NCBI GenBank assembly: GCA_021683455.1
Contig: GCA_021683455.1_3051.1
Origin: a phage
Strand: one strand, 5' to 3'
DNA length: 64,000 nt
Part shown: piece after piece, positions 7,344 through 12,657 of the stretch
How the letters are laid out: each line of letters begins with the position of its first letter
Position numbering within the stretch: position 1 is the first letter of the stretch
Position numbers and translations under genes: made by a program
The notes under the pieces: generated by a model
Seen by the model: the letters and a program-made list of their open reading frames with translations, nothing else
The model's database searches: none
What the model was told of the DNA's origin: nothing

Positions 7344-8762
7344 TTATGGATAAGTATAGATGATACCAGTTTCTAAAGCAGTTTTATGGATGATGTATCC
7401 ATTACGTGATTCTTGAACATCAACTTCTGGATAATCTTTCATCATCTTCTGAAGCGTATAACGATGCAAGTAGTACTTACTATCTGGATCATCAGTTTTC
7501 CAATCTTTACCTTCTTCTGTCATTTTTTGGATTTCATCCATAACCCACCAACCGCACCAGATGTAAGCTGAAGTACGGTGTGGAAGAGGATGAACATAAG
7601 GCAATTCACCTTCTGGTTCCGGAGCAACTTTATCAGTTACCTGAACTTGACCCGTCGTTTTAACTGTTTTGCTATCATAATCAGTAGCAGTAACAGTTGC
7701 CGTAACTTCAATAGTTTGACTTCCAATAGATGAGGTATCAACGGTATATACATTAGTTGACCCTTCTGCAGGAGAAGAATCTTTCTTCCATGAATATTCA
7801 ATTTGCGCTTCTTCTGGAGCACCAGTGACATTAGCGGTAAATGTAGCTGAAGCATCTTGCTGAACGTTAATAGAAGGAGGAGTCAATGTAACCTGTGGAT
7901 TCATTGTCTTCTTATTAACTGTTAATGATACTTCATTAGAAGTAACTTCCTTTTCATTGTAATTTTCTGCTGTTACTTGGGCTACGCATTTAATTCTTTT
8001 TACTCCACTTGTAGTTGGAGTATAGCTAAATGTAGAGTTAGTTTCTCCACCAACTTGAGAATCATCTACATACCATTTATATGTAGCAGACGCTCCATCA
8101 GGTTGAGAAGCTAAGGCAGCAGTAAATTGAACTGGGGTTCCAATTACTCCTGCTGGAGGACTATTAGGAGTTACTGCCAAAGTAGTTGTCTGTGTCTTTT
8201 TATTAACAGTCAGTGATACTTCATTCGAAGTAACGGTTTTTTCATCATAATTTGTCGCGGTTACTTGAGCTACACACTTGATTTTTTTAACTCCGCTGGC
8301 GGCAGGAGTGTAATTAAATGTAGCAGAAGTCGCTTCGTCTACAGGAGAATCGTCAACGTACCATTGATACGTAGCAGATGCACCTGATGGCTGCGAAGCT
8401 AAGGCAGCAGTAAATTTAACAGCTGTTCCGATTACTCCAGCAGCGGGACTATTGGGAGTTACTGCCAATGTAGTTGTCTGAGTTTTATTTTTAACCGTTA
8501 TAGTAGTTGATGCTTGAGCTGTTTCAGGACTACTATCTGCAACTTGGTTTGTTGCAACTACCTTAATAGTCTTTTGACCGGCAGGTCCTTTTAACGTATA
8601 ATCAAAAGTTGCAGACGTTTCTTCCTGCGGTGCATCGTCAACAGTCCAAGCATAGGTAATAGGTCCATCTCCAGTTTGACCACTGGGCGTAGCAGTAAAC
8701 TGCTGAGTCTGATCTATAACTCCAGCAGGTGTTTTAGGAGTTATATCAACTGTAAAAGCCAT
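7344..8762 (-). CDS. hoc: Hoc outer capsid decoration protein, four Ig-like domains plus capsid-binding C-terminal domain
   Basis: 472-aa ORF; four tandem ~95-aa Ig-like modules (two nearly identical) followed by a Trp/Tyr-rich C-terminal domain; position between 24.x ORFs and inh. Confidence 0.85.
   Translation of the reverse strand: MAFTVDITPKTPAGVIDQTQQFTATPSGQTGDGPITYAWTVDDAPQEETSATFDYTLKGPAGQKTIKVVATNQVADSSPETAQASTTITVKNKTQTTTLAVTPNSPAAGVIGTAVKFTAALASQPSGASATYQWYVDDSPVDEATSATFNYTPAASGVKKIKCVAQVTATNYDEKTVTSNEVSLTVNKKTQTTTLAVTPNSPPAGVIGTPVQFTAALASQPDGASATYKWYVDDSQVGGETNSTFSYTPTTSGVKRIKCVAQVTAENYNEKEVTSNEVSLTVNKKTMNPQVTLTPPSINVQQDASATFTANVTGAPEEAQIEYSWKKDSSPAEGSTNVYTVDTSSIGSQTIEVTATVTATDYDSKTVKTTGQVQVTDKVAPEPEGELPYVHPLPHRTSAYIWCGWWVMDEIQKMTEEGKDWKTDDPDSKYYLHRYTLQKMMKDYPEVDVQESRNGYIIHKTALETGIIYTYP
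7917..8492 (-). repeat. tandem ~288-bp duplication inside hoc encoding two near-identical Ig-like domains
   Basis: Protein segments KNKTQTTTLAVTPNSPAAGVIGTAVKFTAALASQP... and NKKTQTTTLAVTPNSPPAGVIGTPVQFTAALASQP... (96 aa each) are ~85 percent identical; DNA copies are likewise near-identical. Confidence 0.85.
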
Positions 8763-8771
8763 ATGTTATCC

Positions 8772-9452
8772 TTATTTTAATGTTACGAAAGAAGAATTGC
8801 GTGTTTCACGAATTAAAACTGATCCGTCGCGATTAATGTAATAAATTAAGCTAAACAAAGTTTGGTGTGCTGACGCGTGTTCAAAACTAGTTGGATGAGA
8901 TTTCCAATCAGGAGTTTCAGCGATCCATTGATAAATCCACCAAGGAACCGTACAGAATCCTGGATTTTTCCCCAATAATTGAAGATTCGGGCTAAAGTTT
9001 TCCGGAAGAGTAAATACAGACGGCTTTTCAGATTCAATAATCTCAGCTACAGCTTGTTCAAACTTTTCTTCAACAAAAGGAGTGTCTTCAATCAAAACGT
9101 CAGTATTTTCAGGAATTTTATCCGTTTCTACCACTTCAATTTTAATATCAGATTTAACTGGAGAATCAATCAGAAGTGCTGCTTCTGGATTAACTTCTTC
9201 ATCGTCATATTTTAATCCCTCTGCAGCATCAGCAGCATCAATTAAGTCTTTAATAGATAACCCATCAGTCTCTGGCATAGGTTCACTAGCGAGCTTCTGG
9301 AGGGCTTCTTCAATATCAACAACGATATTATCAAAAGATTTATTCTTTTTGACCTTTATACCAAACTGTTCAGCGTATTCAGCTAATTTAGCTTTAGCTT
9401 CTTTATTATCATCAAGAGCCTTCAGCTCTGCAATATAATCTTTATCTATCAT
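8772..9452 (-). CDS. inh: Inh, inhibitor of prohead protease (hoc.1 position)
   Basis: 226-aa ORF immediately upstream of hoc on the same strand; length and synteny as in T4. Confidence 0.65.
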   Translation of the reverse strand: MIDKDYIAELKALDDNKEAKAKLAEYAEQFGIKVKKNKSFDNIVVDIEEALQKLASEPMPETDGLSIKDLIDAADAAEGLKYDDEEVNPEAALLIDSPVKSDIKIEVVETDKIPENTDVLIEDTPFVEEKFEQAVAEIIESEKPSVFTLPENFSPNLQLLGKNPGFCTVPWWIYQWIAETPDWKSHPTSFEHASAHQTLFSLIYYINRDGSVLIRETRNSSFVTLK

Positions 9453-9466
9453 AATATTTCCTCAGT

Positions 9467-9474
9467 ATAAATAT
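9467..9474 (+). promoter_or_regulatory. late promoter TATAAATA upstream of GIY-YIG endonuclease gene and uvsW
   Basis: Exact TATAAATA about 28 nt upstream of the ATG at 9502. Confidence 0.55.
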
Positions 9475-9501
9475 AGATATATTTATTACTCGGAAAATAG
9501 T

Positions 9502-10119
9502 ATGTACCACTTTGTATATGAAACAACAAATCTAATAAATGGTAAAAAGTATATAGGAAAACACTCTACTGATGACTTGAATGATGGTTACCTTGGTTCC
9601 GGTAAGGCAATTCAGCAGGCTATAAAGAAATATGGTGAAAACAATTTCTCTAGAACAATACTAAAAGAGTTTAAAACTTCTGAAGAAGCGTACATGTATG
9701 AAGAAGAAATTATAACTCCTGAACTAATAAAAAGCAAAAATTATTATAATATGAAACCTGGTGGAATTGGTGGAATTGTTATGACTACAGAGGTTATAAC
9801 AAAGATGAAAGAATCTTCCGCTAAAAGATTTGAAAACTCACCAGGCACGGTATTAGGTAAAACTTGTTACACTAATGGAACTAAAAATATTTTTATTAAA
9901 CCTGGAGAACTTGTTCCAGAAGGATTTGTAAAAGGGATGGTTCATCCTAATAGAAAGTCCAGAAAAGGATGTAAAGTCAAACCGACTACCACAGGAACTT
10001 TTTGGGTCAATAATGGCGCAATAAATAAATTAATACAACCAGACGGTATTATTCCCGACGGATTTATTAAAGGTCGTCTCATGAAAAGAGATTCTAAAGG
10101 CAAATTTAGTAAGGCATAA
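9502..10119 (+). CDS. GIY-YIG family homing endonuclease (SegE-like position between inh and uvsW)
   Basis: 205-aa ORF with N-terminal GIY-YIG module (HFVYETTNLINGKKYIGKHST...GSG), basic C-terminal DNA-binding region. Confidence 0.75.
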   Translation: MYHFVYETTNLINGKKYIGKHSTDDLNDGYLGSGKAIQQAIKKYGENNFSRTILKEFKTSEEAYMYEEEIITPELIKSKNYYNMKPGGIGGIVMTTEVITKMKESSAKRFENSPGTVLGKTCYTNGTKNIFIKPGELVPEGFVKGMVHPNRKSRKGCKVKPTTTGTFWVNNGAINKLIQPDGIIPDGFIKGRLMKRDSKGKFSKA

Positions 10120-10121
10120 TT

Positions 10122-11630
10122 ATGGATATTAAAGTACATTTTCACGACTTCAGTCATGTACGCATCGATTGTGAAGAGAGCACGTTCCACGAATTAAGAG
10201 ATTTCTTTTCGTTTGAGGCCGATGGATATAGATTTAACCCTCGCTTCAGATATGGCAACTGGGATGGACGAATCCGTCTTTTAGATTATAATCGCCTTCT
10301 TCCATTCGGCTTAGTCGGGCAAATTAAAAAGTTCTGTGATAACTTTGGCTATAAAGCCTGGATTGACCCACAAATTAACGAAAAAGAAGAATTATCAAGA
10401 AAAGATTTTGATGAATGGCTTTCTAAATTAGAAATCTATTCAGGAAATAAAAGAATTGAACCACACTGGTATCAAAAAGATGCAGTGTTCGAAGGATTAG
10501 TTAATCGTCGTAGAATTCTTAATCTTCCAACATCTGCAGGTAAATCTTTAATTCAGGCTCTGCTTGCGCGATATTATTTGGAAAATTATGAAGGTAAAAT
10601 TCTTATCATTGTTCCAACAACTGCTCTAACAACTCAGATGGCTGATGATTTCGTTGACTATCGTTTATTCAGTCATGCAATGATAAAGAAAATCGGTGGT
10701 GGAGCATCAAAAGATGATAAATATAAAAATGATGCACCAGTCGTTGTTGGTACATGGCAAACTGTAGTAAAACAACCAAAAGAATGGTTCTCACAGTTTG
10801 GAATGATGATGAATGATGAATGTCATCTTGCTACAGGAAAAAGTATTTCATCTATCATATCAGGTTTAAATAACTGTATGTTCAAATTTGGTCTATCTGG
10901 TTCATTACGTGATGGCAAAGCCAATATCATGCAGTATGTTGGAATGTTTGGCGAAATATTTAAGCCAGTAACGACTTCTAAGTTAATGGAAGATGGACAA
11001 GTAACTGAGCTAAAAATTAATAGTATTTTTCTTCGTTATCCTGATGAGTTCACTACTAAATTAAAGGGAAAAACTTACCAAGAAGAAATAAAAATTATTA
11101 CGGGGCTTAGTAAAAGAAATAAATGGATCGCTAAATTAGCTATTAAGCTTGCGCAAAAAGATGAAAACGCTTTTGTCATGTTTAAACATGTATCGCACGG
11201 TAAAGCTATTTTCGATTTAATTAAAAATGAATACGATAAAGTTTATTACGTATCAGGGGAAGTTGATACCGAAACCCGCAATATAATGAAAACCTTAGCT
11301 GAAAATGGTAAAGGAATAATTATAGTAGCTAGTTATGGTGTATTTTCTACTGGTATTTCAGTTAAAAATCTGCATCACGTTGTTTTAGCGCACGGTGTTA
11401 AATCAAAAATCATTGTATTACAAACAATCGGTCGTGTATTACGTAAGCATGGTTCTAAGACAATAGCAACTGTCTGGGACCTCATAGATGACGCGGGCGT
11501 AGTTTCTAAATCAAAAACATCTTCTAAAAAATACTCGCATTTAAACTATCTTTTAAAACATGGACTTGATCGTATTCAGCGTTATGCTGATGAAAAGTTT
11601 AATTATGTGATGAAAGAGGTTAAACTTTGA
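10122..11630 (+). CDS. uvsW: UvsW RNA-DNA and DNA-DNA helicase
   Basis: 502-aa ORF; SF2 helicase motifs (Walker A PTSAGKS, DEAH-like MNDECH); length as in T4 UvsW. Confidence 0.9.
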   Translation: MDIKVHFHDFSHVRIDCEESTFHELRDFFSFEADGYRFNPRFRYGNWDGRIRLLDYNRLLPFGLVGQIKKFCDNFGYKAWIDPQINEKEELSRKDFDEWLSKLEIYSGNKRIEPHWYQKDAVFEGLVNRRRILNLPTSAGKSLIQALLARYYLENYEGKILIIVPTTALTTQMADDFVDYRLFSHAMIKKIGGGASKDDKYKNDAPVVVGTWQTVVKQPKEWFSQFGMMMNDECHLATGKSISSIISGLNNCMFKFGLSGSLRDGKANIMQYVGMFGEIFKPVTTSKLMEDGQVTELKINSIFLRYPDEFTTKLKGKTYQEEIKIITGLSKRNKWIAKLAIKLAQKDENAFVMFKHVSHGKAIFDLIKNEYDKVYYVSGEVDTETRNIMKTLAENGKGIIIVASYGVFSTGISVKNLHHVVLAHGVKSKIIVLQTIGRVLRKHGSKTIATVWDLIDDAGVVSKSKTSSKKYSHLNYLLKHGLDRIQRYADEKFNYVMKEVKL

Positions 11631-12319
11631 ATTATAAATTAATATATGATAATTTAATTAATAGAGCCCAGAATCGGGCTCGCCTTAATGGATACACTGA
11701 AACACATCATATAATTCCTAGATGTATGGGTGGTACAAATGATAAGTGTAATTTAGTAGAACTAACGGCTGAAGAACATTTTATAGCCCATAAACTTTTA
11801 GCTAAAATTCATCCAAACCATTACGGTATAATTAAAGCTGTTATATGTATGGGGATGAATTCAAATACTCATGAAAGACATGTTAATAAATCTTACGCAT
11901 GGGAACGTCGTAAAATGGCAGAACTTCAATCCGGCGAAGGTAATCCATTTTACGGAAAACACCATACGGAAGAACATAAACAATATATGTCAAAACTCAT
12001 GAAAAGTCGTCCAATTACATGGGGAAATAAAATTAGTAAAACTAAAAGAATGAACCCAACGAAATGGACTGAAGAAGCTAAAAGATTACATTCAATCAAT
12101 CAATCGGGTAAAAATAACGGCATGTATGGAAGGAAACATTCTGCTAAATCTATTCAGAAAATTAAAGATAACATGCCAGATAATTCAGGAGCTAATAACC
12201 CAGCTGCTAAACCTATAGAAGTAAATGGTGTTAAATATAAATGTATGAAAGATGCTTCTAAAGCTACTGGATTATCAATGTACAAACTAAGAATACTTAG
12301 AAAAACAGTTAATTTATAA
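11624..12319 (+). mobile_element. free-standing HNH homing endonuclease gene inserted between uvsW and uvsW.1
   Basis: Intergenic endonuclease ORF at a position that I recall as a direct uvsW/uvsW.1 junction in T4. Confidence 0.6.
11627..12319 (+). CDS. HNH homing endonuclease with NUMOD-like C-terminal repeats; probable TTG start
   Basis: 230-aa ORF; HNH motif HHIIPRCMGGTNDKCNLVELTAEEHFIAH; repeated GK/RKHxxE/S motifs (NPFYGKHHTEEHKQYMSK, NGMYGRKHSAKSIQKIKD); in-frame stop at 11621-11623 leaves TTG at 11627 as the only start that keeps the N-terminus; overlaps the uvsW stop TGA. Confidence 0.8.
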   Translation: MNYKLIYDNLINRAQNRARLNGYTETHHIIPRCMGGTNDKCNLVELTAEEHFIAHKLLAKIHPNHYGIIKAVICMGMNSNTHERHVNKSYAWERRKMAELQSGEGNPFYGKHHTEEHKQYMSKLMKSRPITWGNKISKTKRMNPTKWTEEAKRLHSINQSGKNNGMYGRKHSAKSIQKIKDNMPDNSGANNPAAKPIEVNGVKYKCMKDASKATGLSMYKLRILRKTVNL

Positions 12320-12331
12320 GGGCTTCGGCCC
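12320..12331 (+). terminator. stem-loop (GGGC-TTCG-GCCC) between HNH gene and uvsW.1
   Basis: GC stem with TTCG tetraloop followed by T-rich tract. Confidence 0.45.
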
Positions 12332-12332
12332 T

Positions 12333-12578
12333 TTGGAGAAAAAGATGTTACTAGAATTTAAACAATTTCTTTATGAAGCTTCTATTGATGAATTTATGGG
12401 TAAAATTGCCTCTTGTCAAACATTAGAAGGTTTAGAAGAACTTGAAGCTTATTATAAGAAAAGAGTCAAAGAAACTGAATTAAAAGATACTGATGACATC
12501 TCTGTGAGAGATGCTTTGGCAGGAAAAAGAGCTGAATTAGAAGATTCAGACGATGATGAAGTAGAAGAAAGCTTTTAA
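12333..12578 (+). CDS. uvsW.1: UvsW.1-like small acidic protein
   Basis: 81-aa ORF downstream of uvsW, acidic C-terminus; synteny. Confidence 0.6.
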   Translation: MEKKMLLEFKQFLYEASIDEFMGKIASCQTLEGLEELEAYYKKRVKETELKDTDDISVRDALAGKRAELEDSDDDEVEESF

Positions 12579-12657
12579 ATTAAAAAAGGCCCAACCGAAA
12601 AGGAAGGGCCAAAACTATAGACTAAAGGTCACACTATAGCAAAAGTTGTGTTTCATT

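Follow-up and report, generated by a model that had tools for sequence, protein, structure and literature searches.

At issue in this locus is whether two selfish nucleases of different families have homed to opposite ends of one helicase gene and each left a mark on its sequence. The gene is uvsW, carried by a Tequatrovirus on contig GCA_021683455.1_3051.1 (assembly GCA_021683455.1), and it was analysed within a stretch of 64,000 nucleotides (nt), called the window throughout. Directly upstream lies segE, and the 4-kb region around that gene matches 727 phage records, the closest being Escherichia phage vB_EcoM-G28 (98.9%) and phage T6 (97.8%). We consider it very likely that two free-standing homing endonuclease genes (HEGs), independent of each other, lie on either side of uvsW, each homing together with a co-converted patch of uvsW linked to it. 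The activity and homing of SegE are taken from the literature, and for the second nuclease we infer activity, target and expression, as we do the role of the patches in immunity. The sequence-only reading had placed the feature at 9453-10119, which takes in only the upstream spacer and segE, whereas the whole feature extends over about 9466-12331. Its main parts are as follows.

9502-10119, + strand: segE, a free-standing GIY-YIG homing endonuclease gene (205 amino acids (aa); PF19835, PHROG 314)
10122-11630, + strand: uvsW, an intact helicase gene with mosaic ends (502 aa; Pfam UvsW_N, ResIII and Helicase_C)
11627-12319, + strand: MobE-like HNH homing endonuclease gene (230 aa, TTG start)
10127-10257, + strand: segE-linked diverged patch, uvsW codons 2-46, predicted SegE target/immunity region
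11492-11629, + strand: HNH-linked diverged patch, uvsW codons 456-502, predicted HNH enzyme target/immunity region

The evidence for this reading lies first of all in uvsW itself. Alleles with and without segE differ at 35 positions (25.9%) in the upstream patch, affecting 21 synonymous and 5 non-synonymous codons, and alleles with and without the HNH gene differ at about 43 positions (29.8%; 15 synonymous and 11 non-synonymous codons) in the downstream patch. Each patch occupies ~135-140 bp at its end of the gene, whereas the 1.2-kb core diverges by 1.8-2.7% and inh and uvsW.1, on the outer sides, show essentially no differences; residues 1-456 of the window UvsW are identical to T4 UvsW. The differences are strongly clustered (p=8e-13 for the 5' patch and p=6e-19 for the 3' patch), and in nine aligned genomes each patch tracks its own nuclease gene without exception. 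Inspection of polymorphism at the uvsW ends, proposed by the sequence-only reading as a check, thus revealed one diverged patch at each end, at 26-30% against ~2% in the core, which co-varies with the adjacent nuclease.

The same association was seen on a larger scale in 50,697 phage records, among which segE was scored at >=95% identity and which include GenBank/RefSeq duplicates and related genomes. Among about 509 Tequatrovirus-level records with the locus, segE is present in 159, the HNH gene in 49 and both in 32, and the corresponding patch types were found in 158 and 49 records, respectively. All four presence/absence states exist: both genes occur in the window, T6, PST and G28; segE only in T4, in which the uvsW-uvsW.1 interval holds no gene; the HNH gene only in two IMG/VR genomes; and neither HEG in two genomes. 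The insertion junctions are identical in all Tequatrovirus copies.

Intermediate alleles are also found. In the HEG-free genome OES_C-1 (L037), HNH-type sequence is confined to the distal half of the 3' patch and segE-type sequence to the distal tip of the 5' patch; in UFV11 (L038), likewise HEG-free, the distal 50 bp of the 5' patch are of segE type. Next to an empty insertion site, both genomes invariably have the HEG-free type of sequence. Such endpoints are the variable ones that repeated conversion and recombination around the insertion points would be expected to leave, and the two genomes could serve as natural substrates for target-site mapping. Together with published SegE homing, the HEG-linked patches and recombinant alleles support the earlier suggestion that the locus is a hotspot of gene conversion and marker exclusion.

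The mosaic ends could instead reflect ordinary recombination with divergent phages, in which the gene ends are generic breakpoints and the nucleases mere passengers. T4-like genomes are indeed mosaic in general, and a large share of this has no connection with HEGs (PMC2993671). No donor of either patch was identified among the compared loci: as regards an origin in a sampled genus, the segE-type patch is 70% identical to loci with SegE homologues against 62-63% otherwise, a marginal difference, and the HNH-type patch is an outlier to all. We nevertheless regard this explanation as very improbable, because the patches lie exactly against the HEG insertion points, their occurrence follows HEG presence almost one-to-one, the divergence does not extend to inh and uvsW.1 on the outer sides, three genera show this pattern with the HNH gene, and SegE-dependent co-conversion has been shown experimentally (PMC2330249).

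The upstream nuclease is identified without difficulty. As the sequence-only reading proposed, a GIY-YIG gene lies directly upstream of uvsW, and 203 of its 205 aa are identical to T4 SegE; the two substitutions, at residues 97 and 100, both lie beyond the N-terminal catalytic domain. The protein matches the Pfam model PF19835 (SegE_GIY-YIG) with 35.2 bits (cutoff 25) and PHROG 314 with E=2e-43, and the generic GIY-YIG model PF01541 falls slightly short of its 22.6-bit cutoff at 21.5 bits. SegE homologues (64-66% and 48% identity) occupy the inh|uvsW interval in other lineages too. The published insertion site of SegE is inh/uvsW, with uvsW as the listed target (PMC2988022 Table 1), and crosses of T4 with the segE-less phage RB30 gave nearly 100% segE homing with co-conversion of the flanks (Kadyrov 1997, per PMC2330249). 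In mixed infection, SegE cuts segE-less genomes at the inh/uvsW junction or the 5' end of uvsW, as published, and repair from a segE+ genome would copy in segE along with ~135 bp of diverged uvsW 5' sequence.

The downstream open reading frame (ORF) is likewise a nuclease gene, of another family. It is laid out as an N-terminal HNH domain, two NUMOD3 motifs (Pfam, E=7.6e-14) and a C-terminal I-TevI-like DNA-binding domain, and it matches PHROG 655, 'homing endonuclease', with E=3.9e-60. The N-terminal motif reads E-x-HH-I-I-P-R-C-M-G-G...N-L-V-x-L-T-x-x-E-H-x-x-A-H, and none of the residues H28, N42, H51 and H55 (plus P31, C33, G36 and E50) varies across two alignments, of 30 and 37 homologues, in which T4 MobE is represented. 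Within T4, MobE is the closest paralogue (168 aa aligned at 42% identity). A family profile aligns this motif to McrA (6ghc, E=2.4e-4), the group II intron RT-En domain (6me0) and Cas8-HNH. An AlphaFold2 model (predicted local distance difference test score 88.8) places strands at 25-28 and 43-46 followed by a helix at 48-61, and residues ~157-216 match the I-TevI DNA-binding domain 1i3j in a profile search (E=2e-7), which is also the top Foldseek match. The claims that an HNH gene directly follows uvsW and that the two nucleases belong to different families therefore both hold: the HNH motif is intact, the start of the gene overlaps the uvsW stop, and a GIY-YIG enzyme, SegE, is paired with an HNH/NUMOD3 enzyme of MobE type.

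Both ORFs retain their catalytic residues, the loss of which the sequence-only reading had named as grounds for abandoning its view. Ratios of non-synonymous to synonymous substitution (dN/dS) range from 0.05 to 0.16 across the segE and HNH genes (0.05 for the latter), every copy examined is intact, and both genes are under purifying selection; for the HNH gene, the dN/dS value argues for a translated protein despite the TTG start. As a separate observation, the 62-nt stretch 11696-11757, which codes for the HNH motif, is 92-93.5% identical in DNA to mobB of T4 and RB55, the proteins being otherwise distant. This likeness could stem from gene conversion between HEG paralogues or from strong constraint on the motif.

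How a nuclease gene came to lie against the 3' end of a helicase gene without damaging it is apparent from the junctions, for which the following features are needed.

11616-11619, + strand: Shine-Dalgarno GAGG of the HNH gene, within the surrogate terminal codons of uvsW, 7 nt before the TTG
11664-11681, + strand: GC-rich hairpin GAGCCC-AGAATC-GGGCTC, lacking a U-tract, at HNH codons 13-18
12302-12319, + strand: displaced ancestral terminal codons of uvsW (K-T-V-N-L-stop), now the C-terminus and stop of the HNH ORF
12320-12331, + strand: hairpin GGGCTTCGGCCC with a UUCG loop, between the stop codon and uvsW.1; ancestral, also in HNH-free genomes
12335-12338, + strand: Shine-Dalgarno GGAG preceding uvsW.1
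12345-12578, + strand: uvsW.1 (Pfam UvsW-1), with an ATG start at 12345 per the T6 annotation

HNH-free genomes end uvsW with ATG AAA ACA GTT AAT TTA TAA, followed by the GGGCTTCGGCCC hairpin and uvsW.1. The window uvsW ends instead with ATG AAA GAG GTT AAA CTT TGA (K-E-V-K-L-stop), its TGA stop overlapping the HNH start as TTGA, and the sequence AAA ACA GTT AAT TTA TAA at 12302-12319 exactly repeats the end of uvsW in HNH-free genomes. The HNH gene is inserted inside the last 4-5 uvsW codons, as a cassette that brings a replacement C-terminus, stop and Shine-Dalgarno. The gene uvsW.1 is the same in genomes with and without the HNH gene. We also considered whether the insertion had caused the split between uvsW and uvsW.1; this was rejected, as the two are split in every HNH-free locus and genus examined, and they are documented as separate genes (PMC1524935).

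Because the TTG start overlaps the uvsW stop, translation of the HNH gene is probably coupled to that of uvsW on the late message and yields little enzyme. If it acts as MobE does, the enzyme would nick the conserved 3' end of uvsW in HNH-less genomes, and the HNH gene would be copied in with a diverged patch of ~140 bp that is presumably uncleavable. MobE itself is promoterless and co-transcribed, contains an internal hairpin, nicks a neighbouring gene and mobilises its neighbour in trans. The hairpin at 11664-11681 is placed like the internal terminator hairpin of T4 mobE, and strong GC hairpins lie at codons 12-18 in all four lineages found at the uvsW site (including L036, L040 and L042) and in T4 mobE (L039:1233-1252). 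Hairpin sequences and encoded residues differ among them, and 72 more distant family members do not generally share the hairpin. Two further roles for RNA structure were tried and discarded: as a family-wide conserved element, a comparable 5' fold was found in 23 of 77 wider members, no more than in control segments, and as a means of sequestering the Shine-Dalgarno and start of the HNH gene, there is weak AU-rich pairing only, with the GC hairpin further downstream accounting for most of the z of -2.4.

Homologues of the HNH protein (54-70% aa identity) were found at uvsW|uvsW.1, with a 4-nt overlap of their start and the uvsW stop, in three further groups, represented by the Jiaodavirus Klebsiella phage pzk-kv6-1, the Dhakavirus Escherichia phage PSD2002 and Morganella phage Rgz1. 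The Dhakavirus copy has the same design as that of the window, in that uvsW ends in K-E-V-Q-I-stop with GAGG and TTG and the HNH ORF terminates in the local ancestral M-K-Q-V-D-L-stop, and in the Jiaodavirus copy only the final N-L-stop/ATG overlap is duplicated. Since the right junctions are lineage-specific, separate insertion events into a conserved site are indicated. In Jiaodavirus and Dhakavirus, too, the end of uvsW is diverged, mostly by synonymous changes. The last 54 uvsW codons differ by 19.8% between a Jiaodavirus with the HNH gene and an HNH-free congener (22 synonymous, 3 non-synonymous), against 1.8% elsewhere, and in Dhakavirus the last ~210 nt are 67-82% identical between carriers and non-carriers, against 95-100% elsewhere. 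The uvsW tails of HNH-free alleles are 76-81% alike across genera. As those tails are alike and the tails of carriers are outliers, the HNH family is apparently tied to a well-conserved sequence that is heavily recoded in carriers. Convergence from TAC GTA to TAT GTN beside the insertion site in three genera was considered as a target core and dropped, a similar number of shared third-position changes being expected by chance.

These comparisons also bear on the possibility that the HNH gene is stranded or domesticated and no longer homing, so that the 3' patch would be a relic of one ancient insertion, later passed on vertically or by ordinary recombination. Only 49 of the ~509 Tequatrovirus records carry the gene, its TTG start is weak, and copies differ about as much as the flanking genes, giving no sign of a recent sweep. 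A stranded gene is hard to reconcile with an intact catalytic motif at a dN/dS of 0.05, with carriers scattered over different Tequatrovirus species, both with and without segE, with insertion at the same site in four groups whose right junctions indicate separate events, and with a diverged patch that recurs in three genera; we therefore think it unlikely.

Several observations weigh against two actively homing nucleases. The agreement between patch and gene counts is not a tally of independent events, given the duplicate records and related genomes. The Pfam HNH model PF01844 scores 16.2 bits on the HNH ORF, below its cutoff of 21.4 (E=0.012), although the model is short and MobE-type HNH domains are divergent, and Foldseek matches of the HNH protein to Cas8-HNH, the Gme HNH structure 4h9d and McrA were not significant (E=0.28-1.6). 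A TTG start with possible pairing of the Shine-Dalgarno and start could lead to very low or no translation of the HNH gene. Sources disagree on SegE, the cut being placed in the inh-uvsW spacer in one (PMC2330249) and in uvsW in another (PMC2988022). Finally, the patches of HNH carriers from different genera are no closer to each other (62-72%) than to HNH-free alleles; a patch shared among them was sought and not found at that identity, and the patches may derive either from accumulated immunity changes or from import from unsampled donors.

A further question is how the two nuclease genes are transcribed. The sequence-only reading credited segE with its own late promoter; the relevant features lie in the spacer to its left.

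8772-9452, - strand: inh, adjoining the spacer left of segE
9453-9501, 49 nt: inh|segE spacer, containing TATAAATA
9466-9473, + strand: late-promoter motif TATAAATA, in the part of the spacer common to segE-free genomes
9480-9487, - strand: leftward late-promoter partner (TATTTATT on the + strand, AATAAATA on the - strand), facing inh; a putative promoter
9490-10121, + strand: segE insertion, comprising a 5' leader, the segE ORF and a new uvsW ribosome-binding region; missing in segE-free relatives

Identity of the spacer to segE-free genomes continues to 9489 and resumes, in diverged form, within uvsW. The TATAAATA octamer is not above chance in the window as a whole (15 occurrences against 9 expected), but upstream of uvsW it is present in 34 of 36 related loci from many genera, at a distance of 36-44 nt, and the spacer sequence with TATAAATA is identical in segE-free genomes. 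The divergent pair TATAAATA-N6/7-TATTTATA(A/T) in the inh|uvsW spacer is kept in every segE-free locus and in 34 of the 36 loci overall, across several Tevenvirinae genera, and probably represents back-to-back late promoters directing uvsW rightward and inh leftward. An 'own' promoter of segE can thus be ruled out, as the motif and its divergent partner are ancestral and occur without segE. Because TATAAATA precedes uvsW in segE-free genomes of many genera, segE was inserted behind a pre-existing uvsW late promoter, and the motif at 9466-9473 is, on this comparative evidence, the ancestral uvsW late promoter, captured by segE. Such capture agrees with a review in which transcription of segE starts from a promoter in the non-coding region preceding it (PMC2988022).

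No MotA-type middle promoter was found inside segE or near the HNH start, and a scan for sigma-70-like promoters gave fewer sites than in shuffled sequence. Since the only TATAAATA on the + strand of the locus is that at 9466-9473 and MotA-type boxes are lacking, a single late transcript would read segE, uvsW, the HNH gene and uvsW.1.

The presence of two HEGs 1.5 kb apart raises the question of whether they travel together. In the Tequatrovirus records their co-occurrence exceeds independence (32/17/127/333 for both, HNH gene only, segE only and neither; odds ratio 4.9, uncorrected for relatedness and duplicates). Because of the short distance, a repair tract started by either nuclease may carry the other gene across, for which the mobilisation of I-TevIII in trans by MobE offers an analogue. 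It is possible, although we put it forward only tentatively, that the two nucleases form a linked pair, with segE-uvsW-HNH spreading as a drive cassette of ~2.9 kb, and that the HNH lineage is a specialist of the uvsW 3' end in at least four T4-like groups. Such a lineage would each time insert in the last uvsW codons, supply a surrogate C-terminus, stop and Shine-Dalgarno, and take the displaced host codons as its own end.

The excess of co-occurrence could also be read as a sign that the nucleases are kept as weapons or tools of the phage, excluding the uvsW alleles of competitors or amplifying and recombining nearby genes by induced breaks. Partial exclusion of T2 by T4 through HEGs is established, and for T6 it has been reported that SegB drives the amplification of anti-defence loci (PMC13096335). 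Nothing in the locus suggests a cargo beyond uvsW, most Tequatroviruses lack either gene, and a role of this kind could exist alongside homing, not in place of it; as the main reason for the arrangement we find it improbable. Independent homing of two HEGs, each with its linked patch, remains the reading we prefer.

Around the locus, the gene following uvsW.1 is uvsY.-2, on the minus strand. Between these converging genes, at 12579-12625, lies a GC-rich inverted repeat with A-run/T-run flanks, which corresponds to a conserved bidirectional terminator noted by Nolan et al. 2006 (PMC1524935). A tblastn search (E<1e-3) found no other paralogues of SegE or the HNH protein in the 64-kb window, and segD, mobE, segG and I-TevI, the T4 HEGs that map to the span of the window, appear to be absent or very divergent here. 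In some Dhakavirus-like contigs an additional ORF of 232 aa lies between uvsY.-2 and uvsY (L032:4977-5675, - strand; L034; L041:2897-3595, - strand); those of L032 and L034 have 36% tblastn identity to the SegE N-terminal domain, and that of L041 has no Pfam match at E<0.01. The uvsW-uvsY neighbourhood of other genera may be a collector of HEGs. Further left, Hoc (window 7344-8762, - strand) is longer than in T4 (472 aa, compared with 376 aa) and contains an additional internal copy of the immunoglobulin-like module; the alignment of T4 Hoc to the window Hoc begins only at residue 95.

Two reference records of uvsW deserve mention in their own right. The T4 RefSeq record NC_000866 (L004 6172-6200) still annotates a fused uvsW of 587 aa and differs from all relatives at the uvsW stop codon and the GGGCTTCGGCCC hairpin; the relatives have separate uvsW and uvsW.1. 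In the T6 record MH550421 (L001), a 1-nt deletion (TTTAAA to TTTAA) at the equivalent of window position 11184 frameshifts uvsW, which is annotated as two pieces; the window uvsW is intact. The T6 frameshift could be a laboratory-strain mutation or a sequencing error.

The bracketing of uvsW by two HEGs is real but ordinary, being common in public genomes that include the classical T6; the flanking by two nucleases can already be read from the annotation of T6 and about 30 further genome records, Yersinia phage PST and G28 among them. Of the two halves, that of SegE is known already, and the HNH half is an annotated, unstudied member of the MobE-like family. Its labels in public records are inconsistent ('hypothetical protein', 'mobD', 'MobE', 'group I intron endonuclease'), several mob-like HNH genes were counted in T6 by Petrov et al. 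without detail (PMC2993671), and our literature search found no paper describing an HNH gene at uvsW|uvsW.1. The arrangement would not surprise a specialist and leaves the current understanding of homing unchanged. For annotation, its value is that the upstream gene can be named segE and the downstream gene an uncharacterised HEG of the MobE family.

Beyond annotation, the locus offers a clean natural case of footprints of intronless homing on either end of one gene of an essential pathway. Sequenced phages already provide each of the four allelic states as well as recombinant intermediates, which makes the locus a convenient system in which to address the length of co-conversion tracts, the help that adjacent HEGs may give each other and the way in which an HNH nick becomes a conversion event. 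It also shows how a HEG inserted in coding sequence repairs the damage by carrying replacement codons.

Set beside known systems, the upstream half of the locus is that of T4 SegE (Kadyrov et al. 1997), with the same gene, insertion site, upstream TATAAATA and uvsW 5' haplotype; D/A in T4 are replaced by E97/T100 here, which is conservative, and no functional difference is expected. The downstream half resembles T4 MobE, an HNH endonuclease encoded between nrdA and nrdB (Wilson & Edgell 2009), in its assignment to PHROG 655, its N-terminal HNH motif, the lack of a promoter, a start that overlaps the stop of the upstream gene and a hairpin at the same 5' codons. It differs in lying at uvsW|uvsW.1 rather than nrdA|nrdB, in its TTG start, in a hairpin without a U-tract, and in the C-terminal half, where an I-TevI-like helix-turn-helix takes the place of the Cys-rich tail of MobE. 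The DNA-binding domain of I-TevI (1i3j), which the C-terminus of the HNH protein resembles, is here fused to an HNH and not to a GIY-YIG catalytic domain, as is typical of modular shuffling among phage HEGs.

Insertion within a host coding sequence, rather than a spacer, is shared with Aeh1 mobE in nrdA and T4 mobA in gene 60/39. Those HEGs split the host gene, whereas the window HNH gene replaces the displaced 4-5 codons and UvsW stays one full-length polypeptide. SegF and SegG reportedly bring about intronless homing and localised marker exclusion (Belle 2002; Liu 2003). Like the nucleases at uvsW, they are free-standing HEGs that cut a conserved neighbour away from the insertion site, and co-conversion leaves HEG-linked patches; at uvsW, by contrast, two HEGs of different families sit at opposite ends of one 1.5-kb gene.

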